A DNA stretch of 64,000 nt from Dehalococcoidia bacterium (GTDB taxonomy: Bacteria > Chloroflexota > Dehalococcoidia > UBA2979): NCBI GenBank assembly GCA_965247925.1, contig CBDFIB010000004.1:195499-259498 (forward strand), written 5' to 3'. Within the stretch, counting starts at the first letter, position 1; every line of letters starts with the position of its first letter. This document shows, in pieces, positions 4,231 to 18,323 of this stretch. Below the pieces are notes generated by a model. It saw only the letters and a list, made by a program, of their open reading frames with translations. It searched no databases and was not told where the DNA came from. Position numbers and translations under genes: made by a program.

Positions 4231-4998
4231 ATGACCAACCCAACGGGAGCCTACGAGCGCCGCATCGAGCTTGAGGGGGTGCGGAACTTCCGCGACCTCG
4301 GCGGCTACGAGACCGGCGACGGCGCGCGCCTGCGCTGGCGCACCGTCTACCGCTCCAGCACGCTCTGCGAGGCGACGCCCGCCGACGTGCAGCGCCTACT
4401 CGACCTCGACCTCACGCTCGTGCTCGACCTGCGCTCCGACGACGAACTCGAACGGACCGGCATCTCCACGCTGCACGAGCACGGCGTCGAACACCGCCAC
4501 GTGCCCTACCGGCGCAGCCTCACGACCTCGGCCGACCGCCTTGCGATGCGCGACCGCTCCGGGACGGGCCTCGACTACCTGCCCGGCATCGAGAGGTGCA
4601 TGCCGGCGGTCGGCGAGGTCTTCGCGGCGATCGCCGAGGTCGACGACGGGCAGGCGATCGCCTTCAACTGCGAGGGCGGCAAGGACCGCACCGGCGTGAC
4701 GGCCGCGCTGCTGCTGCGCGTGCTTGGCGTCCCCGACGAGACGATCGTCCAGGACTACGTGCTCACCCGCGAGTACCTGACGATGTGGCGTGACCTCAGC
4801 GACGAGCAGATCGCGGCGAGGGGTGAGCGGTGGGGCCTCGAGCTGACGCGCGCCATGCTCGACTCCACGCCCGACACGATGGAGGCGCTGCTGCGCGGGA
4901 TCGACGAGCGCTTCGGCTCCACCGCCGCGCTGCTCGCCCTCGGCGGCGTCGACACGTCCCTGATCGAGCGGCTGCGGGAGCGGCTGCTCGAGCGCTAA
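4231..4998 (+). CDS. Protein-tyrosine phosphatase (Tyr_Phos_2 family)
   Basis: CX5R P-loop ([10 protein letters not shown]), RNFRDLGG N-terminal motif. 255 aa. Confidence 0.8.
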
Positions 4999-5531
4999 CC
5001 GGACTCCCAGCCCGCAGCTGCGAGCGGTTCGACCCCCTCGAGGCCGACGTCGTCGCGCAGCTCGGCGACGCTGCGCCCCAGCAGCGGGTGCACGAGCTGC
5101 GGCGCGATCTCCGCGAGCGGGACGAGAACGAAGGAACGCTCGTGCATCCTCGGATGCGGGAGCTGCAGCTCCGCGCTCTCGATCCGCAGCTCGCCGGCAA
5201 GCAGCAAGTCGAGGTCCAGCGGGCGCGGGCTGTTGCGCGGCGCGTCGAGGTCGCGGCCCGCGGCGACCTCGATGCGCTTGCAGAGGCGCAGCAGCTCGAG
5301 GGGTTCGAGCGCGGTGCGCACACAGGCCGCCGCGTTCGCGTAGGGCGGCGCGGGCGCCAGGCAGGCCGGCGAGCCCCACGGCTCCGTCTCGTAGAGCGGG
5401 GACACCGCCTCGACGGTCACACCCGCCTCCGCCAGCCTCGCGAGCCCCGTGCGCAGCGCGGCGATCCGATCGCCGAGGTTGCCGCCGATCCCGAGGTAGA
5501 CGCGCTGCTCCGTGCCCTCGGCGGCTGTCAC
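4995..5531 (-). CDS. folK: 2-amino-4-hydroxy-6-hydroxymethyldihydropteridine pyrophosphokinase (HPPK)
   Basis: [12 protein letters not shown]...PLYETEPWG...RPLDLDLL motifs. 4-nt overlap with folP upstream. Confidence 0.9.
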
Positions 5532-6400
5532 GGCGATTCCGCCCGGCGGCCACCGTGCACGATCGCGTCGGTCACCCTCGCGACATCGGCCATCTCGCGG
5601 ACATCGTGGACGCGCACGATGTCGGCTCCGGCGGCGATGGCGAGCACGACGGTCGCGGCGCCTCCGGCGACGCGCGAGGCGGGCGGCTCCTGCTCGCGCC
5701 CAAGCGCCCAGCCGATCGCGGACTTGCGCGAGCTGCCGAGCAGCAGCGGCCGCCCGAGCGCGCGCAGCTCGCCGAACCGGCGCACGAGCTCGAGACTCTG
5801 CTCCGGCCCGAAGCCGAAACCGAAGCCCGGATCGAGAATCAGCTGCTCACGCGACACGCCCGCCGCCTCCGCGATCGCGAGCGATTCCTCGAGGCCCGCT
5901 CGCACGTCGGCGATCACGTCGCCAGAGGACGGGCGGCCACGCTGGTTGTGCATCAGCACCGCCGGCAGCCCGCGCGCGGCGAGCAGCGGCGCGAGCGCCG
6001 GATCGGCGCGCAGGGCCTGCACATCGTTGAGCGCGTCGGCGCCCGCCTCGAAGGCTCGCCCGGCGACGTACGCCTTCGAGGTGTCGACGCTGATCGGCGC
6101 CGCGACGGCGTCGCGCACGGCGCGCAGCACGGGCGCGAGGCGCGCCCACTCGCCGGGCCCGTCGAGGGGATCGTGGCCGGGGCGCGTGGATTCCGCGCCG
6201 ACGTCGATCAGGTCCGCGCCGTCCTCGATCATCCGCGCGGCCTGCTCGGCGGCGACGGCCGGATCGAGCACGCCGTCGCCGGAGAAGGAGTCCGGCGTGG
6301 CGTTGACGATGCCCATCACGTAGCTGCGCCGCCCCCACTCGAAGCAGCGCCCGCCGATCACGATCGGCGCGGGAGGCGCGGCGGACGGCTCGGACGTCAT
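5528..6400 (-). CDS. folP: Dihydropteroate synthase
   Basis: [16 protein letters not shown]..., [10 protein letters not shown], pterin-binding TIM-barrel motifs. Confidence 0.9.
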
Positions 6401-6419
6401 CGAGGGCGCCCCGGCGCGA

Positions 6420-6851
6420 TCAGACGATCTCGGCCGGGATCTCCTCGATCACGCCGCCCTGGTGAATGTAGTAGGCGTGCAGCGGAGGAGGTTCCCCGGC
6501 GAGCGAGACGAGCAGGTAGATGGTTCCCGGATAGGCCGGCTCGCGATCCGTCTCGCCGGGCGGGAAGAACGCCATCCGCACGTCCGTCTGCGAGGGGTAT
6601 GCGGGCGAGGCGACGTGCGAGTGATAGATCGCGAACAGCGCCTCGCCTCGTTCGTCGCGCTGCTGCTCCAGCCGCATCTGCTCCATGCCGTGCATCTCGA
6701 AGCGGTAGGGGCTGGCGGCGACGTTGGTCACGGGGTGCACGGAGACGGCCTCGCCGTCCTGGGCGTGCACCAGGCCGCAGGCCTCGTTCGGCAGATCCTC
6801 GCGGGCGTGCGCGATGATCGCATCGGCGAGGGCGCGCGGGATCCGTGGCAT
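6420..6851 (-). CDS. mec: Mec-like JAMM/MPN+ metalloprotease (CysO/MoaD-type sulfur-carrier deconjugase)
   Basis: EACG...HSHVASPAYPSQTD JAMM motif. Overall similarity in length and layout to mycobacterial Mec (Rv1334). Confidence 0.85.
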   Translation of the reverse strand: MPRIPRALADAIIAHAREDLPNEACGLVHAQDGEAVSVHPVTNVAASPYRFEMHGMEQMRLEQQRDERGEALFAIYHSHVASPAYPSQTDVRMAFFPPGETDREPAYPGTIYLLVSLAGEPPPLHAYYIHQGGVIEEIPAEIV

Positions 6852-6878
6852 CGTTCCTCCGAAGCGGTTCTTGCGCGG

Positions 6879-7268
6879 CTACCAGGCCGTCGGCTCGCCG
6901 TCGTCGATGCAGGCGTTCCCGCTGAGGCGCATCAGCGCGAAGTTGGCGCTCGACGGCGGCGCCGCGAGGTGCTCGAGCCAGTGCGCGCGTTCGGACTCGG
7001 GCAGGCGCTCGGCGAAGTCCGAGGCGAACACCTCGATCTCCTCCTCGCCGGGCGCGATCCCGGCGTCGATCGACCAGCCACGCACGATCGCGATGCGGCC
7101 GACGCTGCGCGTGCGCAGCAGCCGCGCGTCAGCCCGCTCGCGGTAGCGGTCGAGGACGGAGGCGCGGAAGCGCAGCGGGAGCAGGCCGTAGTCGCCGCGC
7201 GCGACCGCGCGCTCGACCAGCGCGCGCTGCGATCCCCGCGCCCCGCCGTCGCTGTCCTCAGCGGCCAT
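6879..7268 (-). CDS. Hypothetical protein, 129 aa (possibly an SseC/DUF1416-like partner of the rhodanese; family assignment from memory only)
   Basis: ORF between the rhodanese and mec on the same strand, with genome-typical codon usage and no recognisable catalytic motif. Confidence 0.45.
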   Translation of the reverse strand: MAAEDSDGGARGSQRALVERAVARGDYGLLPLRFRASVLDRYRERADARLLRTRSVGRIAIVRGWSIDAGIAPGEEEIEVFASDFAERLPESERAHWLEHLAAPPSSANFALMRLSGNACIDDGEPTAW

Positions 7269-7274
7269 CGGCTC

Positions 7275-8099
7275 CTACGTCTCGATCGGCACGCCGATCA
7301 GCGAGCCGTACTCGGTCCACGAGCCGTCGTAGTTCTTCACGTCGTCGTGGCCGAGCAGGTACTTGAGCACGAACCAGGTGTGCGAGGAGCGCTCGCCGAT
7401 GCGGCAGTAGGCGATTGCCGGCTCGTCCTCGACGACGCCCGCGCCGCCGTAGATCTCGCGCAGATCGTCGGCGCTGCGGAAGGTGCCGTCCTCGTTGACG
7501 GCGCGCGCCCAGGGCACGTTGATCGCGCCGGGGATGTGGCCGCCGCGCTGCGCCGTCTCCGGCAGGCCAGGCGGCGCGATGATCTCGCCGACGAACTCGG
7601 CCGGGCTGCGCACGTCCACCAGCTGCGGCGCCTGCGCCGCGACAGCCGCGAGGATCTCGTCGCGCTGGGCGCGCAGGCTGGCGTCCTGCTCCTGCGCCGT
7701 GTAGCTGGCGCGTCCAATCGAGGGCGCGTCGGTCGTGACCTCGCGCCCGTCGGCGATCCACTTCACGCGGCCGCCGTCCATCAGCGAAACCTGCTCGTGG
7801 CCGTGAAGCTCCAGCAGCCACAGCGCGTAGGCCGCGAACCAGTTGTTGTTGTCGCCGTAGAGCACCACGTGCGTGTCGTTGCTGATGCCAGAAGACGCCA
7901 GCAGGTCCTCAAGGTCGTCCTTCGCGATCACGTCGCGGCGCACCTGGTCCTGCAGCTGCGTCGCCCAGTTCCAGCCGGCGGCGCCCGCGATGTGGCCCTC
8001 GTCGTAGGCGCCGGTGTCGACGTCGACCTCGACGAGGCGCACGTTCGAGTCGCTTCCGTGTTCGGCTACCCAGTCCGCCGTCACAAGCTTGTCCGTCAT
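7275..8099 (-). CDS. sseA: Thiosulfate/3-mercaptopyruvate sulfurtransferase (tandem rhodanese domains)
   Basis: Two rhodanese domains; active-site CRIGERSS loop. Start taken at MTDKLVTADWV (ATG 8099) rather than the track's 8153. Confidence 0.85.
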   Translation of the reverse strand: MTDKLVTADWVAEHGSDSNVRLVEVDVDTGAYDEGHIAGAAGWNWATQLQDQVRRDVIAKDDLEDLLASSGISNDTHVVLYGDNNNWFAAYALWLLELHGHEQVSLMDGGRVKWIADGREVTTDAPSIGRASYTAQEQDASLRAQRDEILAAVAAQAPQLVDVRSPAEFVGEIIAPPGLPETAQRGGHIPGAINVPWARAVNEDGTFRSADDLREIYGGAGVVEDEPAIAYCRIGERSSHTWFVLKYLLGHDDVKNYDGSWTEYGSLIGVPIET

Positions 8100-8208
8100 G
8101 GTCCGTTCCCCTCTCGGGCGGCAGGGCCGCACCAAACTCGACTTTGTTGGCAAAGATTATCAACATCAGCGCCGCAGCACAACCGCCGGCGACGCATCGC
8201 CGCTCCGG

Positions 8209-9165
8209 CTACCACCAGAGCGTCGTGTTCACGTCCTCCTCGATCGCGTCGTAGTCCTGCGTCCAGAGGCCCGAGGACAGGTACTTCCAGCCGCTGTCCG
8301 CGAGCAGGCAGACGACCTTGCCGCTGCGCATCCGCTCCGCCGCGCGCTGCGCGGCGCGCACCGCCGCCCCGCTGGAGACGCCGGCGAAGATGCCCGTGCG
8401 CTCGGTCAGCTCCCGCGTCAGCCGGAACGAGGTCGCCGAGTCGACGACGATCCGCCCGTCGAGCACGGACTCGTCGAGGACGGGCGGGATGTAGCCCTCC
8501 TCGAGGCTGCGCAGGCCCTGCACCAGGTCGCCCGGATGCGGGGCCGCGGCGACGATGCGCACGGCCGGGTTGTGCTCCTTCAGCCGCCGCCCGACGCCGG
8601 TCAGCGTCCCGCCGGTTCCGAGGCCGGCGACGAAGACGTCGGTGTCCGGCAGGTCCGCGATGATCTCCGGGGCCGTGCTCTCGTAGTGGGCGCGCGGGTT
8701 GTCCTCGTTGTCGTACTGGAAGGGCATGAACCACTCGGGGTGCTCGGCGTGGATCCGCTGCGCCTCGCGCACCGAGCCGTTGGTGCCGAGGTCGCCCGGC
8801 GAGTAGAGGATCTCCGCGCCGAAGCTCTCGAGCAGCTCGACGCGCTCGCGGGTGACGGCGTCCGGCATCACCACCTTCACTGGGTAGCCACGCAGGCGGC
8901 CGATCATCGCCAGCGAGATGCCGGTGTTGCCGGAGGTCGGCTCGAGGATCGTCTGGCCGGGCTCTAGGCGGCCGTCGCGCTCGGCGGCGGAGACCATCCA
9001 CCAGGCGATGCGGTCCTTGACGGAGCCGGTCGGGTTCTCACCCTCCAGCTTCGCGTAGATGCTCACCTCGGGGTTGGGCGACATCACGGAGATGTCGACC
9101 AGCGGCGTGCCGCCGATGCGGTCGAGCAGGCTGCCGGCGGGCGTCCGTCCCGTCGCCTTAGCCAC
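8209..9165 (-). CDS. cysM: Cysteine synthase B-type (CysO-thiocarboxylate / O-phosphoserine dependent), PLP enzyme
   Basis: PTGSVKDR lysine motif and GNTG loop. Sits immediately downstream of a MoaD-like GG carrier, as in mec-cysO-cysM loci. Confidence 0.85.
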   Translation of the reverse strand: MAKATGRTPAGSLLDRIGGTPLVDISVMSPNPEVSIYAKLEGENPTGSVKDRIAWWMVSAAERDGRLEPGQTILEPTSGNTGISLAMIGRLRGYPVKVVMPDAVTRERVELLESFGAEILYSPGDLGTNGSVREAQRIHAEHPEWFMPFQYDNEDNPRAHYESTAPEIIADLPDTDVFVAGLGTGGTLTGVGRRLKEHNPAVRIVAAAPHPGDLVQGLRSLEEGYIPPVLDESVLDGRIVVDSATSFRLTRELTERTGIFAGVSSGAAVRAAQRAAERMRSGKVVCLLADSGWKYLSSGLWTQDYDAIEEDVNTTLWW

Positions 9166-9180
9166 GAGGGCCCCCCGCCG

Positions 9181-9456
9181 CTAGCCGCCGGCCAGCGCGG
9201 GCAGGATCGACACCTCGTCGCCCTCGCTCAGCGCGGTCTCGGCGCCCTGCAGGAAGCGCACGTCCTCGTCGTTGAGGTAGACGTTGACGAAGCGGTGCAG
9301 TTGCCCGCCCTCGTCGACGAGTTGCGAGCGGAAGCCCGGATAGCGCCGCTCGATGTCGTCGATCAGCTCCGCGACGGTGCCGCCCTCGGCGGTCAGTGCG
9401 CGCTGACCGCCGACGGTCTTCTGGATCACCGAGGTCATGTTGACCTGCACCAGCAA
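9181..9456 (-). CDS. cysO: MoaD/ThiS/CysO-family sulfur-carrier protein (beta-grasp, C-terminal Gly-Gly)
   Basis: 91 aa ending ...SILPALAGG, MoaD-like pattern. 15 nt upstream of cysM. Confidence 0.8.
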   Translation of the reverse strand: MLVQVNMTSVIQKTVGGQRALTAEGGTVAELIDDIERRYPGFRSQLVDEGGQLHRFVNVYLNDEDVRFLQGAETALSEGDEVSILPALAGG

Positions 9457-9498
9457 GGCGGTTCCCCTCCCCTGTCGCTCGCGGACGCGCGGTGCGCT

Positions 9499-10617
9499 CT
9501 AGTGCCCGCCGCCGTTGGCCGTCAGGGCCTCGAGCGGTGGGGCGCCGCAGAACGCGTCGTAGTCGATGAGCTCCGTCACGGTCGGCTCGTCACCGCAGAG
9601 CGGGCAAGCCGGATCGCGCCGCAGCTTCATCTCGCGGAACTCCATGGTCAAGGCGTCGATGAGCAGCAGCCGCCCGACGAGCGGCCGGCCGACGTCGAGC
9701 ACCTGTTTGAACACCTCGGTCGCCTGGATCGAGCCGACGATGCCGGTAATCGAGCCCAGCACGCCCGCCTCGGCGCAGGAGGGCACCAGGCCCGGCGGCG
9801 GCGGCGCGGGGTAGAGGCAGCGGTAGCAGCCCTGGCCCGGCTTGAAGACGGTGGCCTGCCCGTCGAAGAGCAGGATCGAGCCGTCCACCAGCGTCTTGCC
9901 CAGCAGGTAGGCGGCGTCGTTGACCAGGTAGCGCGTCGCGAAGTTGTCCGCGCCGTTCACCACGATCTCGTAGTCCGCGAGGATCTCCATCGCGTTCTCC
10001 GAGTGCAGCGGCGCCGGGTGCGTCACAACCCGCACGTGCGGGTTGTAGGCGTGCAGCGTGTCCACCGCCGAGTCGAGCTTCGTGCGCCCGACGTCCTCGG
10101 TCTGGTGCAGCAACTGGCGCTGCAGGTTGGAGAGGTCCACCACGTCGAAGTCGACGAGCCCGATCGTGCCGACGCCGGCGAGCGCGAGGTAGATCGCGAC
10201 CGGGGAGCCGAGGCCGCCCGCGCCCACGATCAGCACCTTCGCGTTGCGCAACTGGCGCTGCCCGATCGAGCCCACCTGCGACATGACGATGTGCCTCGAG
10301 TAGCGCATCGCCTCGTCCGGGGTGAGCGCCGCGCTCGGCGCGGCGCCGCCCGCGAGGGCGGGGATGACCGCGACCTGGTCGCCGTCTCCGACGGCGGTCG
10401 CGACGCCGTCGAGCTCGTGGATCTCCTGGTTGTTGACGTAGATGTTGATGTGCGCGGGCACCCGGCGCTCGCGGTCGTAGACGAGCATGTCGAAGCCCGG
10501 GTAGCGCGCGTTCACCGCGTCGAGGACGCCCGCCACGTCGCCGCCGTCCACCTCGACGTACTCGCGATTGGCCGTGAACTTGCGGAATGGCTGTGGGATG
10601 TAGACGCTGACCGCCAT
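9499..10617 (-). CDS. Fusion protein: N-terminal MoaD/CysO-like ubiquitin-like domain (ends ...IPALAGG) + MoeB/ThiF-type E1 adenylyltransferase with C-terminal CxxC...CPLC zinc motif; no rhodanese domain
   Basis: Residues 1-91 from ATG 10617 (MAVSVYIPQPF...VIPALAGG) resemble the two stand-alone carriers. These are followed by MRYSRHIVM...LIVGAGGLGSP (ATP-binding GxGxxG)...CYRC...CPLCG. The track start at 10746 would overlap cysK, so the internal ATG at 10617 (or 10650) is preferred. Confidence 0.85.
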   Translation of the reverse strand: MAVSVYIPQPFRKFTANREYVEVDGGDVAGVLDAVNARYPGFDMLVYDRERRVPAHINIYVNNQEIHELDGVATAVGDGDQVAVIPALAGGAAPSAALTPDEAMRYSRHIVMSQVGSIGQRQLRNAKVLIVGAGGLGSPVAIYLALAGVGTIGLVDFDVVDLSNLQRQLLHQTEDVGRTKLDSAVDTLHAYNPHVRVVTHPAPLHSENAMEILADYEIVVNGADNFATRYLVNDAAYLLGKTLVDGSILLFDGQATVFKPGQGCYRCLYPAPPPPGLVPSCAEAGVLGSITGIVGSIQATEVFKQVLDVGRPLVGRLLLIDALTMEFREMKLRRDPACPLCGDEPTVTELIDYDAFCGAPPLEALTANGGGH

Positions 10618-10682
10618 CTCCGATCGCCGTCCTTCCTGCCGATCTGCCATGTGCTCCTGATCCGTTCCCTGTCCCCTGTTGC

Positions 10683-11636
10683 TCATGAGAGCGCCACGCT
10701 CAGGTAGCGCTCGCCCGTGTCGCAGAGCATCGTCACCACGCGACACCCCGGACCGAGCCGCTTGCCAACCTCGATCGAGGCCCAGACGTTGCTGCCGGAG
10801 GAGATGCCGACGAGCAGGCCTTCCTCGCGGCTGAGCCGCTCCGTTATCCGGAAGGCGTCCTCGTCGCGGACGCTGATCACCTCGTCGTAGATCTCGCGGT
10901 TGAGTACGCCCGGCACGAACGAGGCGCCGATGCCCTGGATGCCGTGCAGCCCCGCCCGCCCGCCCTGCAGCACCGGCGAGCGCGCCGGCTCGACGGCGAC
11001 GATGCGCACGTCCGCGGCGGCCTCGCGCAGCACCTCGCCGATGCCGGTGATCGAGCCGCCGGTGCCGACGCCGGCCACGAACGCGTCCAGCTCGCCGCCG
11101 GTCGCCTCGAGGATCTCGGGCCCCGTCGTCTCGCGGTGGATGCGCGGGTTGGCGAGGTTGTCGAACTGCTGCGGCATGAAGTAGCCGTGCTGCTCGGAGA
11201 GCTCGCGGGCGGCGTAGACCGCGCCCGTCATGCCCTCGATCGCCGGGGTCAGCCGCAGCTCCGCGCCGAAGCGCTCCAGCAGGCGGCGCCGCTCGACGCT
11301 CATGTCCTCCGGCATCGTCAGGATCAGCCGGTAGCCCTTGCGCGCGCAGACCATCGCGAGGCCGATGCCGGTGTTGCCGGAGGTCGGCTCGACGATCGTG
11401 TCGCCTAGCTCGATCAGTCCCTCGCGCTCGGCGTCCTCGATCATGCTGAGCGCGATCCGGTCCTTGACGGAGCCGGCCGGATTGCGCGATTCGAGCTTGC
11501 CGAGGATCTCGGCGCAGCCCTCGGGCACGACGCGGCCGAGCCGCACCAGCGGCGTGTCGCCGATCAGATCGAGCACGGTGTCGGCGATCGCCGGCTGGGC
11601 GCGACGACCCTCGGTGGTCGGCGCGGTGGTCGTCAT
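10683..11636 (-). CDS. cysK: Cysteine synthase A (O-acetylserine sulfhydrylase)
   Basis: GSVKDR, TSGNTG, typical CysK. Start at MTTTAP (ATG 11636), overlapping by 1 nt the TGA of the upstream Rrf2 gene. Confidence 0.85.
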   Translation of the reverse strand: MTTTAPTTEGRRAQPAIADTVLDLIGDTPLVRLGRVVPEGCAEILGKLESRNPAGSVKDRIALSMIEDAEREGLIELGDTIVEPTSGNTGIGLAMVCARKGYRLILTMPEDMSVERRRLLERFGAELRLTPAIEGMTGAVYAARELSEQHGYFMPQQFDNLANPRIHRETTGPEILEATGGELDAFVAGVGTGGSITGIGEVLREAAADVRIVAVEPARSPVLQGGRAGLHGIQGIGASFVPGVLNREIYDEVISVRDEDAFRITERLSREEGLLVGISSGSNVWASIEVGKRLGPGCRVVTMLCDTGERYLSVALS

Positions 11637-12082
11637 CAGATCGAGTAGTTCGCCGCGCGTGCGTGCTGCTTCGCCCGCGCGCGCTCCGCGAGGTCGGCGA
11701 TGCTCACCGCGCCGAGGCGGCTGCGCATGTCCTCGTAGATCTCCTCCCAGACGGTGCGCTGGGCGCAAAGACCGCATTCGAACGAGCACTCCTCACCGTC
11801 CTCGATGCAACTGATCGGCGCGACCGAGCCCTCGAGCGTCTCGATCACGTGCAGCAGGCACATCTCCTCGGGCTTGCGAGTGAGCAGGTGGCCGCCTCCG
11901 GGGCCGCGCACGCTGCGCACGAAGCCGCCGCGCCGCAGCAGGGCGAGCAGGTGGTCGAGGTAGGACTCCGGGATCTCCTGGCGACCGGCGATTCCCGCGC
12001 GCTGGACCGGCCCCTCGCCGTCGTGGAGCGCGAGGTCAATGAGCGCGCGAACGCCGTAATCGCCCTTCCTGCTCAGCCACAT
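11636..12082 (-). CDS. Rrf2-family transcriptional regulator (CymR/IscR-like)
   Basis: MWLSRKGDYGVRALIDLA... wHTH, plus three Cys in CIEDGEECSFECGLC (possible Fe-S ligands). Start at internal ATG 12082. Confidence 0.8.
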   Translation of the reverse strand: MWLSRKGDYGVRALIDLALHDGEGPVQRAGIAGRQEIPESYLDHLLALLRRGGFVRSVRGPGGGHLLTRKPEEMCLLHVIETLEGSVAPISCIEDGEECSFECGLCAQRTVWEEIYEDMRSRLGAVSIADLAERARAKQHARAANYSI

Positions 12083-12085
12083 TTT

Positions 12086-12140
12086 CCCGACCGCCGCTAA
12101 TGTCGAGTAAGTTGACCAACATTCTAGCACAAGGGTCGGT
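12086..12140 (-). promoter_or_regulatory. Candidate promoter/operator of the Rrf2-cysK... operon
   Basis: On the coding strand: ...TTGTGCTAGAATGTTGGTCAACTTACTCGACATT then ATG. Extended -10 (TGcTAGAAT) followed by an imperfect palindrome GTTGgtCAAC overlapping the predicted transcription start region. Confidence 0.3.
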
Positions 12141-12200
12141 TGGGCCAAGCACTCGGGGATCGGGGCAGGTCAGCGTCCACGGGCGTCACTCGGGATTCGA

Positions 12201-13286
12201 TCAGCTCACCTGATACTGTTTGATGGCGTCCTGGTCGAACTCGAGGCCCAGACCCGGCTTGTCCGGCACCACAATCTGCCCGTCCTCAATGACCGGGGTT
12301 TCTTCAAACAGCCGTAGCGTCCAGGGCATGTACTCCACCGTCAGTCCGTTTGGAATGGCGGCAATGTTGTGCACCTGAATCTCGGGTAGCAGGTGGCTGA
12401 CCACCGGCAGATTGAATGCCTCAGCCATGCCCGCCACCTTTCGGAACTGGGTTATCCCGCCCACCCGCAGCAGGTCGATCATCACAATATCCATCGAGCG
12501 GTGCTCCAGCATGTGCCGGAAGGGACGGATGCCATACACGTACTCTCCGGCGGCGATGGGCGTGGTGAGCGAGTCCGCCACTCGGGCCAATCCCTGGTAG
12601 TCGTCCCGGGCCACCACGTCTTCCAGCCAGAACAGGTGGTACTCCTCCACACGTGACCCAATATCGATGGCCTGGTTCACGTCCCAGAGTTGGTTGATGT
12701 CGCACATCAGATCAATGTCCGGGCCGATGGCGTCGCGCAGGGTGCGGATGCGAGCCACCTCGCGCCGAGCGGTAGGTTCGGCGCCCATCTGGGTCTTCAT
12801 CTGCCTGAAGCCCAGCTCCACCAGGCGAGGACCGGCCTCGGCCAGATACTCCAGATCCATGGGACGCCCCAGTGCGCCGCTGGCGTAGGTAACGACCCGG
12901 TCGCGGTGACCACCCAGCAGGGAGCACACCGTCTGGTTCAGGGCCTTTCCCTTGATGTCCCACAGAGCGATGTCGATGGCCGATATCGCCAGGCTGAATA
13001 TGCCCTCCGGGCCGGAACCGCCCGCCGCGAGTCGCAACCTGTCGGTTACCGCCTCCACCTGCAGCGGGTCTTCGCCCACCGTCAGTTCACAGAGATTGTC
13101 GACCGCAGTGCGCAGGGCCGGGGTGAGCGGGCCACCGAAGAACGTAATGCCGATGCCCTGCACGCCTTCGTCGGTGTCCAGTTCCAGAGTGACGAACTCC
13201 CGGGTGCCAGGCTCGTCGATGCCCACCACCAGGGGATTGTCGGCCGGGGTTTGCAACACACGGGTGGTCCAGCTGCTTACTTTCAT
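12201..13286 (-). CDS. Mandelate racemase / muconate lactonizing enzyme family protein (enolase superfamily)
   Basis: N-terminal capping domain plus TIM barrel (KALNQTVCSLLGG, MCDINQLWD, EDVVARDD). Start at MKVSSWTT (ATG 13286). Confidence 0.8.
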   Translation of the reverse strand: MKVSSWTTRVLQTPADNPLVVGIDEPGTREFVTLELDTDEGVQGIGITFFGGPLTPALRTAVDNLCELTVGEDPLQVEAVTDRLRLAAGGSGPEGIFSLAISAIDIALWDIKGKALNQTVCSLLGGHRDRVVTYASGALGRPMDLEYLAEAGPRLVELGFRQMKTQMGAEPTARREVARIRTLRDAIGPDIDLMCDINQLWDVNQAIDIGSRVEEYHLFWLEDVVARDDYQGLARVADSLTTPIAAGEYVYGIRPFRHMLEHRSMDIVMIDLLRVGGITQFRKVAGMAEAFNLPVVSHLLPEIQVHNIAAIPNGLTVEYMPWTLRLFEETPVIEDGQIVVPDKPGLGLEFDQDAIKQYQVS

Positions 13287-13580
13287 GTGACTGCCCCCGG
13301 AATTGCTCCTTGATTCATAAGCCCTCACCCCAACCCTCTCCCTCAGGGAGAGGGGGCCGGAGCGGTCAGTCCCCGATTGTGCGCGGGGGGAAATCCCTGG
13401 CCGGGTGCGCCGCGAGCACTGCTTCATCGAGGTCGATGCCGAGGCCCGGCGCGGTGGGGAGGGCGATGTGGCTGTCCTCGACCTCGAAGGCCGGCGTCGC
13501 GGCTTCCCGGCCCCACGGCTCGAAGTTCACGAAGCAACCGGTGATGATGAAGCTGGGCATCATCACCGGCGGCAGTATGC
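13225..13580. repeat. Direct repeat copy A (~350 bp, ~90% identical to 15100-15450)
   Basis: By-eye alignment of 13262-13580 with 15127-15450. It covers the 5' end of the MR gene at 12201, a conserved palindrome ccctctccctcagggagaggg (13334-13354), and a 3' fragment of a paralog of the MR gene at 15240. Confidence 0.8.
13366..13566 (-). pseudogene. C-terminal fragment (about 66 aa) of an MR-family paralog (a copy of the 3' end of gene 15240..16376)
   Basis: ...FIITGCFVNFEPWGREAATPAFEVEDSHIALPTAPGLGIDLDEAVLAAHPARDFPPRTIGD is nearly identical to the C-terminus of the intact gene at 15240, but has no upstream body. Confidence 0.6.
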
Positions 13581-13635
13581 GCGACTTTGTGAACGAGCAG
13601 AAGGCTCGCCAGGAACGCGGCGAGGCAACCGACTG

Positions 13636-15033
13636 CTAGAGCTCCGGGTTGCGCATGAAGTCCGTCGCCTGCTCGTAGGCGTAGCCGGCCCGGCAGAGCG
13701 CCTGTTCGCTGCCCAGCGGACCGACGAGCTGCAGCGCGATCGGCATGCCCCGCTCGCTCCAGCCGTTGGGCAGAGTCAGCGTCGGGGCGCGGTTCATGTC
13801 CCAGGGGACCGTGTACTGCAGCCGCCGCCACTGGAATTCTCCCGGCCTGTCATCGTACATCATGTCCTCGGTCACCCGGTGCGGCAACGTGCCCTGGGCC
13901 GGACAGGCCAGCATGTCGATGTCGGCGAAGACCCGAGCCAGTAGGCCGCGCAGTTCTTCGCGGCGGATGCAGGCGTCGGCGTACTCGGTCGCGCTGACAG
14001 ACGACCCCAGCTCCAACCAGGCGCCGAACCAGTTGCCGTAGTCGCCGGCCCGGTTCGGATAGTTATCGAGATGCGCGTGTAGAGCCTCAACCGAGCAGAG
14101 CGTCGGCAAATCGGCCATGTAAGGCATGAAGTCGGGTAGTTGGACCAAGACGATCTCCGCGCCCAGCGATGCCAGGGTTTCGACCGATGCGGCGACGGCC
14201 TCGGCGATTGGCGGGATTACGTCTTCGGTCGCATAGCGCTCGTCATAGCCGATCCGCATACCCGCAACGCCGCCGTCGATCCCGTCAAGCATGGCCGGAG
14301 CCGGCTCGGGCAGCGTGGTCGGATCGTTGGGGTCGTCGCCCGCGATCACTTCGAGCGTGACGGCGCAGTCCCAGGTCGAGCGGCACATCGGGCCGACGTG
14401 GTCGAGCGACTGCGCCAGGTCGAGCACGCCATAGCGGCTCACGCGTCCCCAGGTCGGCTTCAGACCGACGATGCCGCAGGCTGCGGACGGGGTACGGATA
14501 GAGCCGCCGGTGTCGCTGCCCAACGACGCGTAGCAAAGCCCGGCCGCTGTCGCCACAGCGGAGCCGCTGGAGGAGACGCCGGCCCAGCGTCCGGCGTCCC
14601 AGGGGTTAACCGGCACCTGCCGCGCGCGGTTGTATCCGGCCATCGCGCCCTCGGTCATGTTGAGCTTGCCCAGCATCACCGCGCCGGCGTCTTTGAATCG
14701 GGCGACGACCGTGGAGTCGAAGTCAGGAACGAGGTCCTCGAGCACCTTCGTCCCGCCCATCGTGCGGACGCCCGCCGTGTAGCAGAGGTCCTTGACCGCG
14801 ATCGGAACCCCGTGCAGCGGACCGCGATAGTTGCCGGCGGCGATCTCGTCCGCGGCCTGCTGCGCTTTCGCCAGCGCCGAATCGGCCATCACAGTCGCGT
14901 AACTCTTGAGCCGACCGTCGTGCGCCTCGATGCGGTCCAACTGGGCCTGCGTCAGCGCGACCGGCGACAGCTCTCCTGAGGCGATCCGCGGGGCGAGCTC
15001 TTCGATCGTTGCGTAAGCGAGGTCATCGGTCAT
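13636..15033 (-). CDS. Amidase (amidase-signature family)
   Basis: GGSSSGSAVATAAG AS-family signature, catalytic K (AVKD) and S-cisS-S residues. 465 aa. Confidence 0.85.
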   Translation of the reverse strand: MTDDLAYATIEELAPRIASGELSPVALTQAQLDRIEAHDGRLKSYATVMADSALAKAQQAADEIAAGNYRGPLHGVPIAVKDLCYTAGVRTMGGTKVLEDLVPDFDSTVVARFKDAGAVMLGKLNMTEGAMAGYNRARQVPVNPWDAGRWAGVSSSGSAVATAAGLCYASLGSDTGGSIRTPSAACGIVGLKPTWGRVSRYGVLDLAQSLDHVGPMCRSTWDCAVTLEVIAGDDPNDPTTLPEPAPAMLDGIDGGVAGMRIGYDERYATEDVIPPIAEAVAASVETLASLGAEIVLVQLPDFMPYMADLPTLCSVEALHAHLDNYPNRAGDYGNWFGAWLELGSSVSATEYADACIRREELRGLLARVFADIDMLACPAQGTLPHRVTEDMMYDDRPGEFQWRRLQYTVPWDMNRAPTLTLPNGWSERGMPIALQLVGPLGSEQALCRAGYAYEQATDFMRNPEL

Positions 15034-15064
15034 TGGTCAGCTCCGTCCGAATCGGTCGTTTCCC

Positions 15065-15160
15065 AGTCCCGGCTCGGGGGTCGGGCTGATCGACGCCGAC
15101 GATGAGGGGATTAACGTCCGGGGTCTGCAGCACACGGGTGGTCCAGTTGCTTACTCTCAT
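15065..15160 (-). pseudogene. N-terminal fragment (about 30 codons) of a paralog of MR gene 12201..13286
   Basis: MRVSNWTTRVLQTPDVNPLIVGVDQPDPRAG matches MKVSSWTTRVLQTPADNPLVVGIDEPGTREF, then diverges and runs into the amidase start. Confidence 0.5.
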
Positions 15161-15450
15161 GTGACTGCCCCTGGAATTGCTCCTTGATTCATACGCCCTC
15201 ACCCCAACCCTCTCCCTCAGGGAGAGGGGGCCGGAGCGGTCAGTCGCCGATTGTACGCGCGGGGAAGTCCCTCGCTGGATGAGCCTCGAGGACTGCTTCA
15301 TCGAGGTCGATGCCGAGGCCCGGCGCGGTGGGGAGGGCGATGTGGCTGTCCTCGACCTCGAAGGCCGGCGTCGCGGCCTCCTGGCCCCACGGCTCGAAGT
15401 TCACGAAGTACTCCGTGATGATGAAGTTCGGCATCGTCGCCGCGGCCTGC
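15100..15450. repeat. Direct repeat copy B (partner of 13225-13580)
   Basis: See copy A. Contains the same palindrome at 15208-15228. Confidence 0.8.
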
Positions 15451-16376
15451 AGCGTCGCGGCCAGCGCCACGGTCGTCGAGTTGTAGTTGTGCGGAGCGAC
15501 CGCGACGAAGTACGCCTCGGCCATCGCGGCGATCTCCGTCAGTTCCTTGATGCCGCCCACGTTCGCCACGTCGGGATTGATGATGTCCGCCGCGCGCTGC
15601 TCGAAGACCTCGCGGAACTCGAACTTCGTGTAGAGTTCCTCGCCCGTGACGGTGGGGATGTTGATCTGCGCCGTCGCGGCGGCCAGGGCGGTCACGTTCT
15701 CGGCCCAGACCGGCTCCTCGAACCAGAACGGCTCGTACTCCTCGACCATCTTCGCGAGGCGCACCGCGTTCGAGGGACTCAGCCGGCGGTGGACCTCGAC
15801 CAGCACGTCGACGTCGGGGCCGACCGCCTCGCGAACCGCGCGCACGCGATCGGCGGCGACGCGCAGCTCCTTCATGCCCACGTAGCTGCGCCACTTGCCC
15901 GGCACCGGATCGAACTTGAGCCCGGTGAACCCGCGCTCGACCATCGCGCGCGCTCGCGCCTGCAGCTCCTCGAGGTCGTCCATCCTCGCCCAGCCGTTGG
16001 CGTAGACGCGCAGCCGATCGCGCACCGCGCCGCCGAGCAGCTGGTGCACGGGCATCCCCGCACGCTTGCCCGCGAGGTCCCACATCGCCTGTTCCACACC
16101 GGAGATCGCCGCGTACAGGTCCATCGCGCCGCGCCGGTTGCCGAAGTCGTTGTGGATGGCGTCGGTCCAGGGCTTAATCCGCGCCGAGTCCCAACCCACG
16201 ATGTAGCGCCGCAGCGCCTCGAGGTGCGCCGTGATCTGGATGTCGCGGTCCGACTGCGTGTAGCACTCGCCCCAGCCGTGCAGCCCGTCGGCCGTCTCCA
16301 GCCGGACGAAGCAGAGGTTCTTGCCCGCGATGTAGCGATCCGGCTGCCCCGTGTCGGGCGGCGTGGGGTGGACCAG
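15240..16376 (-). CDS. Mandelate racemase / muconate lactonizing enzyme family protein, start codon non-canonical or unresolved
   Basis: TIM-barrel part in track ORF 15240..16199 (KFDP..., EEP, PDV). The N-terminal capping domain (...KNLCFVRLETADGLHGWGECYTQSDRD...) continues in frame upstream to a TGA at 16401-16403 with no ATG/GTG/TTG. The only candidate start is CTG 16376. Confidence 0.65.
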   Translation of the reverse strand: MVHPTPPDTGQPDRYIAGKNLCFVRLETADGLHGWGECYTQSDRDIQITAHLEALRRYIVGWDSARIKPWTDAIHNDFGNRRGAMDLYAAISGVEQAMWDLAGKRAGMPVHQLLGGAVRDRLRVYANGWARMDDLEELQARARAMVERGFTGLKFDPVPGKWRSYVGMKELRVAADRVRAVREAVGPDVDVLVEVHRRLSPSNAVRLAKMVEEYEPFWFEEPVWAENVTALAAATAQINIPTVTGEELYTKFEFREVFEQRAADIINPDVANVGGIKELTEIAAMAEAYFVAVAPHNYNSTTVALAATLQAAATMPNFIITEYFVNFEPWGQEAATPAFEVEDSHIALPTAPGLGIDLDEAVLEAHPARDFPARTIGD

Positions 16377-16487: not shown

Positions 16488-16763
16488 CTAGCCTCCGGCG
16501 ACCGCCGGGACGATCGAGACCTCGTCGCCCTCGGCCAGCTCGCTGGCGAGGCCGGAGAGGAAGCGCACGTCCTCGCCGTTGACGAAGACGTTCACGAAGC
16601 GGCGCAGTTCGCCGTCTTCCTCGCAGAGCCGCTCGCGCATCCCGGGGTAGGACGCCTCGAGGTTCTGAACCACGTCGCCGAGGGTTGCGCCCTCGAGGCT
16701 GACCAGCTCCTGGTCCCCGGTCAGGGTGCGGAGCGGGGCGGGGATTCGCACGTTCACTGCCAT
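16488..16763 (-). CDS. MoaD/ThiS/CysO-like sulfur-carrier protein (C-terminal Gly-Gly), paralog of 9181..9456
   Basis: 91 aa ending ...SIVPAVAGG. RRFVNVFVNGEDVRFLSG...EGDEVSI is near-identical in pattern to the cysO-like protein. Confidence 0.8.
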   Translation of the reverse strand: MAVNVRIPAPLRTLTGDQELVSLEGATLGDVVQNLEASYPGMRERLCEEDGELRRFVNVFVNGEDVRFLSGLASELAEGDEVSIVPAVAGG

Positions 16764-16818: not shown

Positions 16819-17067
16819 TTAGCCCTCGACGATGTCGCCGAGGGTGGCCTGATCGACGCGCACGCCCTTCGCCTGGGCCCAGGCGATCGCGCGGTCGATC
16901 TCGTCGGGTTCGCCCTCGAGCTCGAGCACGACCCAGCCGACGCGCTCGTCGACGTCCGCCATGCGGATGTTGGTGACGACCTCGAACTCGCGGCCGATCA
17001 GGTAGATCAGCGGCTCCTTGATCAGTTCGGGCGAGAAGGTGAAGCGGACCGGTCTGCTCGCCATCAT
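16819..17067 (-). CDS. NIL-domain protein (MetN C-terminal-like ferredoxin fold), 82 aa
   Basis: Only the last 82 codons of track ORF 16819..18291 are plausible: MMASRPVRFTFSPELIKEPLIYLIGREFEVVTNIRMADVDERVGWVVLELEGEPDEIDRAIAWAQAKGVRVD. The ATG at 17067 overlaps the TGA of the upstream ThrC-like gene (ATGA). Confidence 0.75.
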   Translation of the reverse strand: MMASRPVRFTFSPELIKEPLIYLIGREFEVVTNIRMADVDERVGWVVLELEGEPDEIDRAIAWAQAKGVRVDQATLGDIVEG

Positions 17068-18323
17068 GCGCCTCCTGCCGCGGCCGCGGCGGGCGCCCGC
17101 CGCGCCTCGTAGGCCTCGAAGAATGCGTCGCTGCGGGCGGGCACGTGCAGCGGGCTGGAGAGGCCGCCCTGCAGCGCCTCGGTGGTCTTGAGGCCGCCGC
17201 CGGTGATGAAGGCGACGGTCTCCTCGCCGGGCGCGATCTGGCCGCGTTCGGCCATGTGCTTGAGGCAGGCGATCGTGGTGCCGCCCGCCGTCTCGGCGAA
17301 GATGCCCTCGGTCTCCGCGAGCAGCTTCATGCCCTCGACGATCTCCGCGTCCGTGGCCATCGCCGCGACGCCGTTCGTCTCCTCCAGCGTCTTGAGCGCA
17401 TAGTACCCGTCCGCCGGGTTGCCGATCGCGATCGAGCGCGCGATCGTGTTCGGCTTCTGCGGCCGGAAGTTGAGCGTGCCCTCCTCGAAGGCGGTCGCGA
17501 TCGGCGAGCAGCCGGTCGCCTGCGCGCCCGACATGCGCGTCCGCGGCTCGTCGATCAGGCCGACCTGGTGCAGCTCCTTGAAGCCCTTCCAGATCTTCGT
17601 GAAGAGCGAGCCCGAGGCCATCGGCACCACGCAGTGGTCCGGTGTGCGCCAGCCGAGCTGCTCGGCCACCTCGAAGGCGAGCGTGCGCGAGCCCTCGGCG
17701 TAGTAGGGCCGCACGTTGATGTTGACGAAGGCCCACGGCTTGGACTGCGCGACCTCGGTGCAGAGCCGGTTCACGTCGTCGTAGGAGCCCTCGACCATCA
17801 CGAGGGTCGGGTTGTAGACGCCGCTGCCGACGACCTTGCCCTCCTCGAGGTCTTGCGGGATGAAGACGATCGTCTCCATGCCGGCGCGCGCGCCGTGCGC
17901 GGCGACGGAGTTGGCGAGGTTGCCGGTGCTGGCGCAGGCGATGCCCGTGTAGCCGAACTCGCGCGCCTTCGCGATCGCGACGGCGACGACGCGGTCCTTG
18001 AACGACCACGTCGGGTTGACGGTGTCGTTCTTGATCCAGAGCCGCTCGATGCCCAGCGCGTCCGCCAGGCGGTCGGCGCGGAGCAGCGGCGTGAACCCCG
18101 CTGCGAGGTCTACGCGGTACTCGGGATCGGAGGGCAGCAGATCGGCGTAGCGCCAGAGCGTGGCCGGGCCGGCGGCGATCGACTCGCGGGAGATCGCGTT
18201 GGCGATGCCCTCGTAGTCGTAGTCGACCTCGAGGGGGCCGAAGCAGAACTCGCAGAAGAAGATCGGTTTGAGCGGGAACTCGCGACCGCACTCGCGGCAG
18301 CGCAGGGATTGTTCGAAGGACAT
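17064..18323 (-). CDS. Threonine synthase-family PLP enzyme with N-terminal zinc ribbon (candidate O-phosphohomoserine sulfhydrylase / homocysteine synthase rather than canonical ThrC)
   Basis: CRECGREF...CEFCFG zinc ribbon. SFKDR PLP-lysine motif and the ThrC fold. Operon context with NIL + MoaD-like carrier. Confidence 0.85.
   Translation of the reverse strand: MSFEQSLRCRECGREFPLKPIFFCEFCFGPLEVDYDYEGIANAISRESIAAGPATLWRYADLLPSDPEYRVDLAAGFTPLLRADRLADALGIERLWIKNDTVNPTWSFKDRVVAVAIAKAREFGYTGIACASTGNLANSVAAHGARAGMETIVFIPQDLEEGKVVGSGVYNPTLVMVEGSYDDVNRLCTEVAQSKPWAFVNINVRPYYAEGSRTLAFEVAEQLGWRTPDHCVVPMASGSLFTKIWKGFKELHQVGLIDEPRTRMSGAQATGCSPIATAFEEGTLNFRPQKPNTIARSIAIGNPADGYYALKTLEETNGVAAMATDAEIVEGMKLLAETEGIFAETAGGTTIACLKHMAERGQIAPGEETVAFITGGGLKTTEALQGGLSSPLHVPARSDAFFEAYEARRAPAAAAAGGA

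Follow-up and report, generated by a model that had tools for sequence, protein, structure and literature searches.

Operons that combine a ThiS/MoaD-type sulfur carrier, an E1-like activating enzyme, a JAB-domain peptidase and a cysteine synthase make up class 4c in the 2006 survey of Iyer, Burroughs and Aravind, with Chloroflexus among the organisms included (PMC1779556). The same survey noted N-terminal fusions of a ubiquitin-like (Ubl) domain to ThiF that occur with a solo carrier, once together with a cysteine synthase and an O-acetylhomoserine sulfhydrylase (PMC1779556). In Mycobacterium tuberculosis, the fused rhodanese domain of MoeZR turns the CysO adenylate into a thiocarboxylate, and the established role of Mec is the hydrolysis of the CysO-cysteine adduct (PMC3227635). 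The thiocarboxylate route to homocysteine through MetM and MetO also uses Mec and a MoeZ-type E1 (bioRxiv 10.1101/2024.10.14.618325). Here, we analyzed a stretch of 64,000 nucleotides from a Dehalococcoidia bacterium (GTDB lineage UBA2979; contig CBDFIB010000004.1, positions 195,499 to 259,498), hereafter called the window, whose minus strand carries a ten-gene locus related to these systems. We consider it likely that the segment 4995-12148 forms an operon, conserved in Dehalococcoidia, that makes cysteine by way of a sulfur-carrier protein and is repressed by the product of its own first gene. The gene identities, the conserved gene order, the promoter and operator, the invariant Gly-Gly of the Ubl domain fused to the E1 (Ubl1) and the Y-x-I tail of the Rrf2 regulator are all observed in the sequence and its comparison with relatives. 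A literature search returned no paper on this operon in Chloroflexota, and the public annotation of the fusion protein is simply "MoeB".

Gene Content and Organization of the Locus

The original prediction had placed eight same-strand genes between 6420 and 12082, covering a complete protein-thiocarboxylate route to cysteine. All eight open reading frames (ORFs) are present in the ORF listing of the window at these minus-strand coordinates, and Pfam and NCBIfam profile searches upheld each of the proposed domain assignments, the 129-aa ORF (hereafter Hyp) being without a family (Table 1). The proposed gene set is thus present: carrier, E1, CysM, deconjugase, candidate persulfide donor, CysK and Rrf2 regulator. 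Three assignments had been singled out for checking. The ORF at 9181-9456 falls in ThiS/MoaD, the one at 8209-9165 is nearest to M. tuberculosis CysM, and the one at 6420-6851 belongs to JAMM/Prok-JAB, its E...HxHx7Sx2D motif being intact (Glu23, His77-x-His79-x7-Ser87-x2-Asp90, read from the translation).

Direct reading of the junctions revealed the TGATG shared by the Rrf2 stop and the cysK start, as had been claimed. The remaining spacers after the fusion gene are 42, 15, 109, 6, 27, and 19 nt, the last one separating Mec from folP, while folP and folK overlap by 4 nt. The description of the junctions as tiny gaps or overlaps is accurate for most of them, but not for the 109-nt spacer from CysM to the rhodanese gene. 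The Rrf2 ORF spans 11636-12148 and its true ATG, at 12082, is where the Pfam alignment starts. The E1 ORF (395-415 aa, ending at 9499) has alternative starts at 10650 and 10686. Only the start at 10686 produces an ATGA overlap with cysK, which we judged probably incidental as the 23 codons before the favoured start show variation at every codon position. The start at 10617 is favoured, since gene callers predict a protein of ~372 aa, all relatives have a conserved Met or Val at the MAVSVYIP position, and more distant relatives have their own Shine-Dalgarno sequence before this start. Starting at 10617 (or 10650) leaves a gap of 33-65 nt after cysK.

The G+C content at third codon positions (GC3) of the scored ORFs, including the 129-aa ORF, was 0.90-0.97, as for real genes in this genome; the fusion ORF was not scored in this composition scan, being masked by its own antisense shadow ORF. 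Two plus-strand antisense ORFs, 6462-8663 (733 aa) and 9295-10707 (470 aa), were taken as shadow ORFs of a genome with 70% GC and not as genes. In the composition scan, the latter had a high G+C content at first codon positions and a lower GC3.

Table 1. Features of the sulfur-carrier locus and of the upstream module (coordinates are those of the window).
Feature	Coordinates	Strand	Basis
Promoter-like site P1 (TTGGCC, 16 nt, TG-extended TAGAAT), upstream of Rrf2	12121-12148	-	sigma-70-like match
Operator O1, imperfect palindrome AATGTTGGTCAACTTACTCGACATT, half-site AATGT[TC]GAG	12099-12123	-	cross-species comparison, position weight matrix (PWM)
Rrf2-family regulator, CymR-like, 148 aa	11636-12082	-	PF02082, 5.8e-35; TIGR00738, 118 bits
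CysK, O-acetylserine sulfhydrylase A type, 317 aa, start MTTTAP	10683-11636	-	TIGR01139, 432.7 bits (cut-off 350.95)
Ubl1-E1 fusion, about 372 aa from ATG 10617	9499-10617	-	ThiS (6e-10) and ThiF (2.4e-78) in one ORF
Ubl1 domain, 91-residue beta-grasp, ends IPALAGG (GG at 10345-10350)	10345-10617	-	ThiS Pfam; CysO is best solved relative
MoeB/ThiF-type E1 half	9502-10329	-	E. coli MoeB 1jw9, 2.6e-57
CysO, 91 aa, ends ALAGG-COOH, TTG start, GGAGG ribosome-binding site	9181-9456	-	ThiS, 2.6e-17
CysM, M. tuberculosis type, 318 aa	8209-9165	-	PDB 3dwg_A, 1.6e-82
Operator-like site O2, AATCTTTGCCAACAAAGTCGAGTTT, in the 109-nt spacer from CysM to rhodanese, immediately preceded by a GATAAT hexamer	8134-8158	-	PWM
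Two-domain thiosulfate sulfurtransferase, CysA/SseA type, 274 aa, start MTDKLV	7275-8099	-	PDB 3aax, 7.9e-102
Unannotated protein (Hyp), 129 aa	6879-7268	-	no family match
Mec-like JAMM/MPN+ metallopeptidase, 143 aa	6420-6851	-	Prok-JAB, 7.1e-21
folP	5528-6400	-	TIGR01496, 259.6 bits
folK	4995-5531	-	TIGR01498, 126.6 bits
MetM-like threonine-synthase homologue, N-terminal zinc ribbon	17064-18323	-	
NIL-domain protein	16819-17067	-	
Third carrier, 91 aa, ends AVAGG	16488-16763	-	47% identical to CysO

Conservation of the Operon Among Dehalococcoidia

Relatives of the locus were collected by scanning the fusion protein against one genome per species, which yielded 79 loci onto which the ten window proteins were mapped. 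Nearly all of these loci are in metagenome-assembled genomes (MAGs) of Dehalococcoidia/Chloroflexota; the record titles name sponge, groundwater, and other environmental metagenomes as their sources, and their identity ranges from 96% down to approximately 58%. Contig ends cut many of the loci, so the counts are lower bounds. The Ubl domain is fused to the E1 in 74 of the 79 loci. Of the same 79, the order Rrf2-CysK-E1 was found in 68 and the longer order Rrf2-CysK-E1-CysO-CysM in 58; Mec lies downstream in 50, Mec, FolP, and FolK are contiguous in 36, and the full ten-gene order is present in 24. A gene-neighbourhood comparison had been suggested together with the original prediction, and it found the cluster across all these loci. 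Its recurrence in dozens of species-level genomes puts the arrangement far beyond chance, and the order conserved across relatives indicates that the cluster is a lineage-wide operon and no peculiarity of the window.

These counts also bear on folP and folK, which had been described as lying next to the unit. The adjacency stands, but given the contiguity with Mec in 36 loci, the two genes look more like the tail of the unit than like neighbours. They are probably distal genes of the cysteine operon and would be carried on the same transcript. In one relative (L083), folP and folK are fused into a single ORF of 473 aa.

Predicted Promoter, Operator, and Rrf2 Regulator

P1 was the only sigma-70-like match within 4500-13000 (1 found vs 0.3 expected), and its TGnTAnAAT element is kept upstream of Rrf2 in relatives. 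In the same interval, no terminator-like site was detected before folK, the only one found being inside folK. The operator O1 overlaps the final bases of the P1 -10 hexamer and the expected transcription start. Its palindrome was established by cross-species comparison; the repeat finder reported no inverted repeat in the promoter region, where the arms are short and imperfect. When the pattern AATGTTGAG-N7-CTCGACATT was searched with up to three mismatches, O1 was the only match in the 64 kb (0 expected). O1 was also the top PWM match with 37.8 bits, compared with a maximum of 10.6 in shuffled sequences, although the matrix was trained on Rrf2-upstream sites and only additional sites count as independent evidence. 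The combination of TGnTAnAAT and palindrome stands at the equivalent place upstream of Rrf2 in about 60 loci, some of them with perfect palindromes, such as ATAGTCGAG-N7-CTCGACTAT in L016.

Additional sites were indeed found. Seven loci (L027, L036, L039, L047, L048, L058, and L063) have extra copies of the operator motif 2-6 kb upstream of Rrf2, and these copies precede genes for a sulfite-reductase-like protein (~590 aa) and a cysH-like phosphoadenylylsulfate/adenylylsulfate (PAPS/APS) reductase (~243 aa), suggesting on computational grounds that the motif marks a sulfur-assimilation regulon. Within the window, the second-best match was O2, with 22.5 bits against the same maximum for shuffled sequences, which is kept only in the closest relatives (L001-L004). 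With the weak -10 hexamer before it, O2 may be an internal promoter under Rrf2 control.

The regulator itself ends in ...ANYSI-COOH (11639-11647). A Y-x-I-COOH tail is present in 68 of 68 Rrf2 orthologues (YSI, YVI, YII, YYI, YAI, and others), and the 15 residues before it are poorly conserved. A terminal Ile characterizes the peptides that block the CysK active site. Crystal structures of CysK with the tails of CymR (EDLDGYMFYI) and CysE (NGEIQDDYII) from Staphylococcus aureus place the Ile carboxylate in the O-acetylserine site (bioRxiv 10.1101/2024.09.19.614015). Given also that the genes for Rrf2 and CysK overlap by one base, the conserved tail is most simply read as that of a CymR-like repressor for which the co-translated CysK serves as co-repressor and O-acetylserine sensor. 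In this fairly probable scheme, Rrf2 would shut the operon by binding the palindrome over the P1 -10 element and start, its YSI tail would dock into CysK as that of CymR does, and O-acetylserine would compete for the site and release repression. The best relative of the regulator in the PDB is the Rrf2/BadM-family regulator 4cic. The window regulator falls short of the IscR equivalog (95.8 bits vs a cut-off of 207.6) and has four clustered cysteines, Cys92/99/103/106, and orthologues have one to four Cys in this loop.

The CysO-CysM-Mec Core

CysO is closest in the PDB to a ThiS/MoaD carrier of A. orientalis (4n6e_B, 1.1e-24) and to M. tuberculosis CysO (3dwg_C, 6e-24). The top three PDB matches of CysM are all M. 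tuberculosis CysM (1.6e-82 to 5.9e-82), followed at a distance by the Escherichia coli enzyme (1.3e-62). The alignment to M. tuberculosis CysM covers residues 10-317 and the C-terminal tail ...TLWW is kept. The pyridoxal phosphate lysine is Lys50 in SVKDR, and Arg219 (GLRS) aligns with the Arg of M. tuberculosis CysM (ALRN; Arg220) that selects O-phosphoserine. Mec matched the structures 2kks (2.1e-16) and archaeal JAMM1 (5lda). From these identities, it is very likely that the E1 adenylates the C-terminal Gly of CysO, and probably also that of the MetO-like carrier encoded upstream and of Ubl1 once freed. It is likewise quite likely that CysM would condense O-phosphoserine with the CysO thiocarboxylate (CysO-COSH) and that Mec would hydrolyse the resulting CysO-Cys adduct.

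Rhodanese and the 129-Residue Protein

The E1 has no C-terminal rhodanese domain: only 30 residues follow its last CxxCG, and the same is true of 67 of 67 homologues. The operon has instead a free rhodanese, whose best PDB match is M. tuberculosis CysA2 and whose catalytic Cys232 lies in an intact CRIGERS loop (7404-7406). In addition, one relative (L071, 7977-9817) has a Ubl-less E1 and a CysA-like rhodanese as an isolated gene pair, with CysO, CysM, Hyp, and Mec not nearby. Taken together, these observations support a functional link between E1 and rhodanese. Since the E1 lacks a domain of its own for this step, the stand-alone rhodanese would with reasonable probability supply the Cys232 persulfide in trans and so convert the acyl-adenylate into the thiocarboxylate.

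Hyp could take part in this transfer. Its gene directly follows that of the CysA-like rhodanese in 27 of 29 loci, the exceptions being one locus cut by a contig end and L071. In L080, the rhodanese-Hyp pair is found outside the operon, next to an unrelated peptidase gene. The family is small: a search of 5.8 billion clusters gave 55 matches, and one of 1.84 billion proteins gave 82 representatives. Hyp had no Pfam, NCBIfam or PDB sequence match and no Foldseek PDB match below E = 0.3, and a Pfam scan of 24 aligned members (E up to 5) gave only sub-threshold noise (BigA_N, DUF3022). Its AlphaFold2 model (predicted local distance difference test, pLDDT, 83.7) has a helix, four or five strands, further helices, and a less ordered C-terminal arm. 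The invariant residues are RTxxVGR, D68/G70, PxxExxHWxxH (E93, H96, W97, H100), and a C-terminal A-C120-I/V-D-D-G...W.

Our preferred but tentative guess is that Hyp would act as a persulfide relay through Cys120, between the rhodanese and the acyl-adenylate. The single invariant Cys is on the flexible, lower-confidence C-terminal arm, and a Cys on such an arm is typical of persulfide carriers such as DsrC/TusE. It is about as likely, however, that Hyp carries no sulfur at all and serves the rhodanese as allosteric activator or specificity subunit, or else is a small metal-binding or regulatory protein acting through Glu93, His96, His100, and Cys120. The conserved E-x2-H-W-x2-H with the Cys and Asp residues does look like a metal site, and L083 retains Hyp although its rhodanese has decayed. 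An activator would have a precedent, as the SufE-like, neighbour-encoded Rv3284 activates M. tuberculosis SseA by binding its non-catalytic domain (PMC12375888), but no likeness of Hyp to SufE or to another family was detected. Also on the side of a role other than sulfur transfer, the Hyp core (about residues 28-101, including LPExERxHW) recurs inside unannotated proteins of 305-552 aa (P0245, P0249, and P0256) that are without the C-terminal Cys motif.

Several candidates were set aside during this analysis. The apparent rhodanese-Hyp fusions P0229 and P0254 are frameshifted Arg-rich mistranslations and were kept as adjacency evidence only, and P0232 and P0234 look like chimeric calls. DUF1416/SseC, considered as a possible mycobacterial CysA partner, was not used, as the literature search gave no confirmation and there was no DUF1416 match. 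A second type of rhodanese (30-34% identity) follows CysO in L038, L050, and L055. A protein of ~150 aa is encoded directly after it in L050 and one ORF further in L038 and L055; this protein is no relative of Hyp and was judged thioesterase-like by eye, without a family scan.

The Ubl1-E1 Fusion

The E1 half of the fusion has the nucleotide loop GAGGLG, the zinc motifs CYRC and CPLC, the SCAEAG cysteine and a C-terminal LIDYDAFCG. It scored 361 with the MoeZ model, for which the cut-off is 647. Its tail (9499-9591) reads LIDY[DE]xFCG in 67 of 67 homologues, with an invariant Cys after the last zinc motif that is a possible sulfur-relay or docking residue. In the window, a linker of five residues separates the Gly-Gly of Ubl1 from the E1. 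Among 67 homologues, this linker ranges from 1 to ~40 low-complexity residues, and the preceding IPA[LI][AS]GG is invariant.

One relative (L081/L082, 2619-3804) encodes Ubl and E1 as separate genes. There, the 93-aa carrier ends in GG-ER and CysO in GG-R. The separate gene indicates that the fused domain is a genuine carrier, and the two endings imply that both carriers need C-terminal trimming in that relative. Related processing is documented elsewhere. A linear SAMP1-MoaE fusion becomes active when HvJAMM1 cleaves it precisely behind GG (PMC4443979), M. tuberculosis MoaX requires cleavage after Gly82 by a protease that has not been identified (PMC4326299), and QbsD and CxnF have been described as trimming extensions after GG (PMC5925218). 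With the invariant GG, the separate carrier, and these precedents, we hold as the most likely reading that the Mec of the operon, the same JAMM that would act on the CysO-Cys adduct, cleaves the Ubl1-E1 polyprotein after Gly-Gly and releases a second carrier, a step to which we give somewhat better than even chances.

A less likely view is that Ubl1 is never released and that free CysO alone carries sulfur. The fused domain would then be a built-in regulatory, docking or autoinhibitory module of the E1, for example by holding the carrier site until CysO displaces it or by recruiting CysM or CysK. Iyer et al. observed a solo ThiS alongside ThiF proteins with an N-terminal Ubl and proposed that the fused domain has another function (PMC1779556). 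A retained Ubl1 would also fit its mere 34% identity to CysO, the linkers of one or two residues after GG in several homologues, and the fusion loci L036 and L063, which have no JAMM gene within reach. It is nevertheless hard to explain, without C-terminal chemistry, why GG should be invariant in 67 homologues, or why L081/L082 should encode the domain on its own, with a short GG-ER extension. Moreover, Ubl-MoaE fusions are experimentally inactive until cut at GG (PMC4443979, PMC4326299).

Upstream MetM/MetO-Like Module and Flanking Genes

The window encodes three 91-aa carriers that end in AGG, namely Ubl1, CysO, and a third one at 16488-16763. The last is encoded beside a NIL-domain protein and a MetM-like enzyme. 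This enzyme scores above the cut-off of the generic thrC model (282.6 vs 167.1), and sequence models cannot separate MetM from ThrC. The trio probably represents a thiocarboxylate route to homocysteine, as judged from its gene content. In L010-L016 and L083, the trio adjoins Rrf2. In the window, a 4-kb insert of lower GC content (12201-16199, GC 0.62-0.68) lies between the two and encodes two or three enolase-superfamily dehydratases and an amidase. It holds a 300-nt direct repeat (13201-13500 and 15075-15374, 90% identical), and the segment has the look of an insertion or duplication by which the MetM/MetO module became separated from the cysteine operon. Hence, the arrangement in relatives and the insert in the window together point to what was probably an ancestral sulfur-amino-acid supercluster with one E1 and one JAMM. 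The genes that flank the locus in the window are housekeeping genes (lgt, murT/gatD, xdhC, ychF, trmO, and gyrB), and no riboswitch or other RNA family from Rfam was found across the whole window.

Alternative Readings and Significance

The cluster might also be a set of modules placed side by side, each expressed on its own (Rrf2-CysK; Ubl-E1-CysO-CysM; rhodanese-Hyp; and Mec-folP-folK), with rhodanese-Hyp devoted to general thiosulfate/persulfide handling or detoxification, which we find improbable. In favour of this view, the rhodanese-Hyp pair is found in just 29 of the 79 loci, as a clear insertion between CysM and Mec, and is placed beside an unrelated peptidase gene in L080. In the window, an operator-like site and a -10-like hexamer of its own precede the pair. 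Loci L038, L046, and L055 show either a displaced Mec or an inverted CysM-Mec. The internal site, however, fits the same operator motif and would leave the pair co-regulated with the other genes. The short spacers and the lack of a terminator-like site before folK argue against separate expression as well, as do the isolated E1-rhodanese pair of L071 and an E1 without the rhodanese domain that M. tuberculosis MoeZR needs (PMC3227635).

Archaeal and Thermus carriers serve both conjugation and sulfur delivery. That Ubl, E1, and JAMM here are chiefly a protein-conjugation (SAMPylation/TtuB-like) system reversibly modifying CysK, CysM or other enzymes is nonetheless very improbable: such a system would be in keeping with this double duty (in part PMC4443979), with the closeness of CysO to the SAMP1 model (58.7, just below the cut-off of 60), which the third carrier passes (77.3), and with the matches of the E1 to the SAMP-activating UbaA model and of Mec to the desampylase model, but the latter two scores are far under the equivalog cut-offs (313.5 vs 450 and 64.9 vs 130), CysO and CysM are nearest to an M. 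tuberculosis pair with an established complex structure and chemistry (PMC3227635), the context is all sulfur assimilation (CysK, rhodanese, an operator common to sulfite reductase and cysH), and no E2- or E3-like gene is present.

Other observations count against the operon model as a whole or against one of its steps. The mechanism is inferred from sequence alone and all the loci come from uncultured MAGs. O2 suggests that separate transcription of the distal genes is also possible. For the regulator, Rrf2 falls short of the CymR equivalog NF047409 (93.2 bits vs a cut-off of 195), the Tyr of its tail occupies position -3, the place it has in CysE, and not -2, the place it has in CymR, and its four cysteines, absent from CymR, could hold an iron-sulfur (Fe-S) cluster, in which case the signal may differ or be dual. 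For the sulfur donor, 50 of the 79 loci are without this rhodanese, meaning that other donors must also work. Many relatives have the same E1 but neither this rhodanese nor Hyp, and the donor can therefore differ, for example free sulfide or a desulfurase. In L083 (5538-6000 and 6926-8347, a region that also holds the folP-folK fusion), the rhodanese has an in-frame stop and an internal deletion beside an intact Hyp. For the polyprotein, only one or two residues follow GG in some homologues, and our literature search found no demonstrated cleavage of a Ubl-E1 protein.

As the pathway class has been known since 2005-2006, the present locus does not overturn current understanding. Such Dehalococcoidia are abundant in sponge, groundwater, and other environmental sources and are uncultured, so that their sulfur amino-acid metabolism is known only from annotation. 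If cleavage occurs, the polyprotein would provide the second carrier and the activating enzyme in fixed 1:1 amounts, and its processing would be a simple bacterial analogue of ubiquitin-precursor processing in which the partner is the activating enzyme itself. The CymR-CysK mechanism, with an enzyme as co-repressor, would reach beyond Firmicutes into Chloroflexota, where the operator is defined and a regulon can be proposed, and Hyp becomes a candidate new partner protein for rhodaneses. At its fullest, the locus would be a self-contained sulfur relay with a JAMM-split carrier-E1 polyprotein, a new family of Cys-armed persulfide shuttles, and a tail-in-CysK Rrf2 possibly bearing an Fe-S cluster. 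With the MetM/MetO module included, a single E1 and a single JAMM would then work on three carriers and for both sulfur amino acids, in an abundant marine/sponge-associated lineage. This complete combination is doubtful.

Comparison with Known Systems

The original prediction measured the novelty of the locus against the mycobacterial genes, which overstated it, since the class 4c operons and the Ubl-ThiF fusions of 2006 precede it (PMC1779556). Class 4c operons have the same four core components as the window (ThiS/MoaD, E1, JAB, and cysteine synthase). They differ in having an E1-rhodanese fusion, whereas the E1 of the window is without rhodanese and is fused to a Ubl domain instead. The Ubl-ThiF fusions reported in 2006 were mainly in thiamine operons of delta/epsilon-proteobacteria and Firmicutes, and that description did not include the regulator, the rhodanese-Hyp pair or the folP/folK genes of the operon studied here.

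The M. tuberculosis system, with CysO-CysM-Mec (Rv1334-1336) and MoeZR (Rv3206c), likewise has a GG-ended carrier of 91-93 aa, a JAMM hydrolase and the same type of CysM. In contrast, the E1 gene of the window is part of the operon, and its product bears both CxxC zinc motifs (MoeB-like according to PMC3227635) and an N-terminal Ubl but no rhodanese domain. A separate two-domain rhodanese and its 129-aa partner are present. The regulator is Rrf2 and not AosR, and CysK and folP/folK are in the operon. SseA/Rv3284 likewise has a small partner gene after that of a two-domain rhodanese, although Hyp matches neither SufE nor another Pfam family and has no PDB fold match.

Like MoaX, SAMP1-MoaE/HvJAMM1, QbsE/QbsD, and CxnE/CxnF, the fusion has an internal or extended GG to be exposed before adenylation, and the JAMM peptidase encoded alongside a GG-extended carrier is common to the window and to GG-processed Ubl systems. 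The partner here is the activating enzyme itself, unlike in those fusions, so that substrate and E1 would be made as one chain, as far as the sequence tells. The likeness to CymR-CysK of Bacillus subtilis and S. aureus lies in the Rrf2-family fold, the Ile-ended C-terminal peptide and the operator before cysteine/sulfur genes. The window regulator, however, is sub-threshold for the equivalog, has four clustered Cys and a tail closer to CysE (..DYII) than to CymR (..MFYI), and its gene forms an overlapping pair with that of CysK. As in Streptomyces MetM/MetO, a threonine-synthase homologue stands beside a GG-ended carrier in the upstream module; here, a NIL-domain protein is encoded between the two and the 4-kb insert precedes the operon.

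What differs in this operon is thus the Ubl-E1 fusion, the stand-alone rhodanese with a new partner family, the control module of a CymR-like Rrf2 with CysK and the co-location of folP/folK. Beyond what had been recognized in the original prediction, Ubl1 appears as a separate carrier with its own GG, the Rrf2 regulator has a tail of the CysK-docking kind, and a third carrier with a MetM-like enzyme is encoded upstream.

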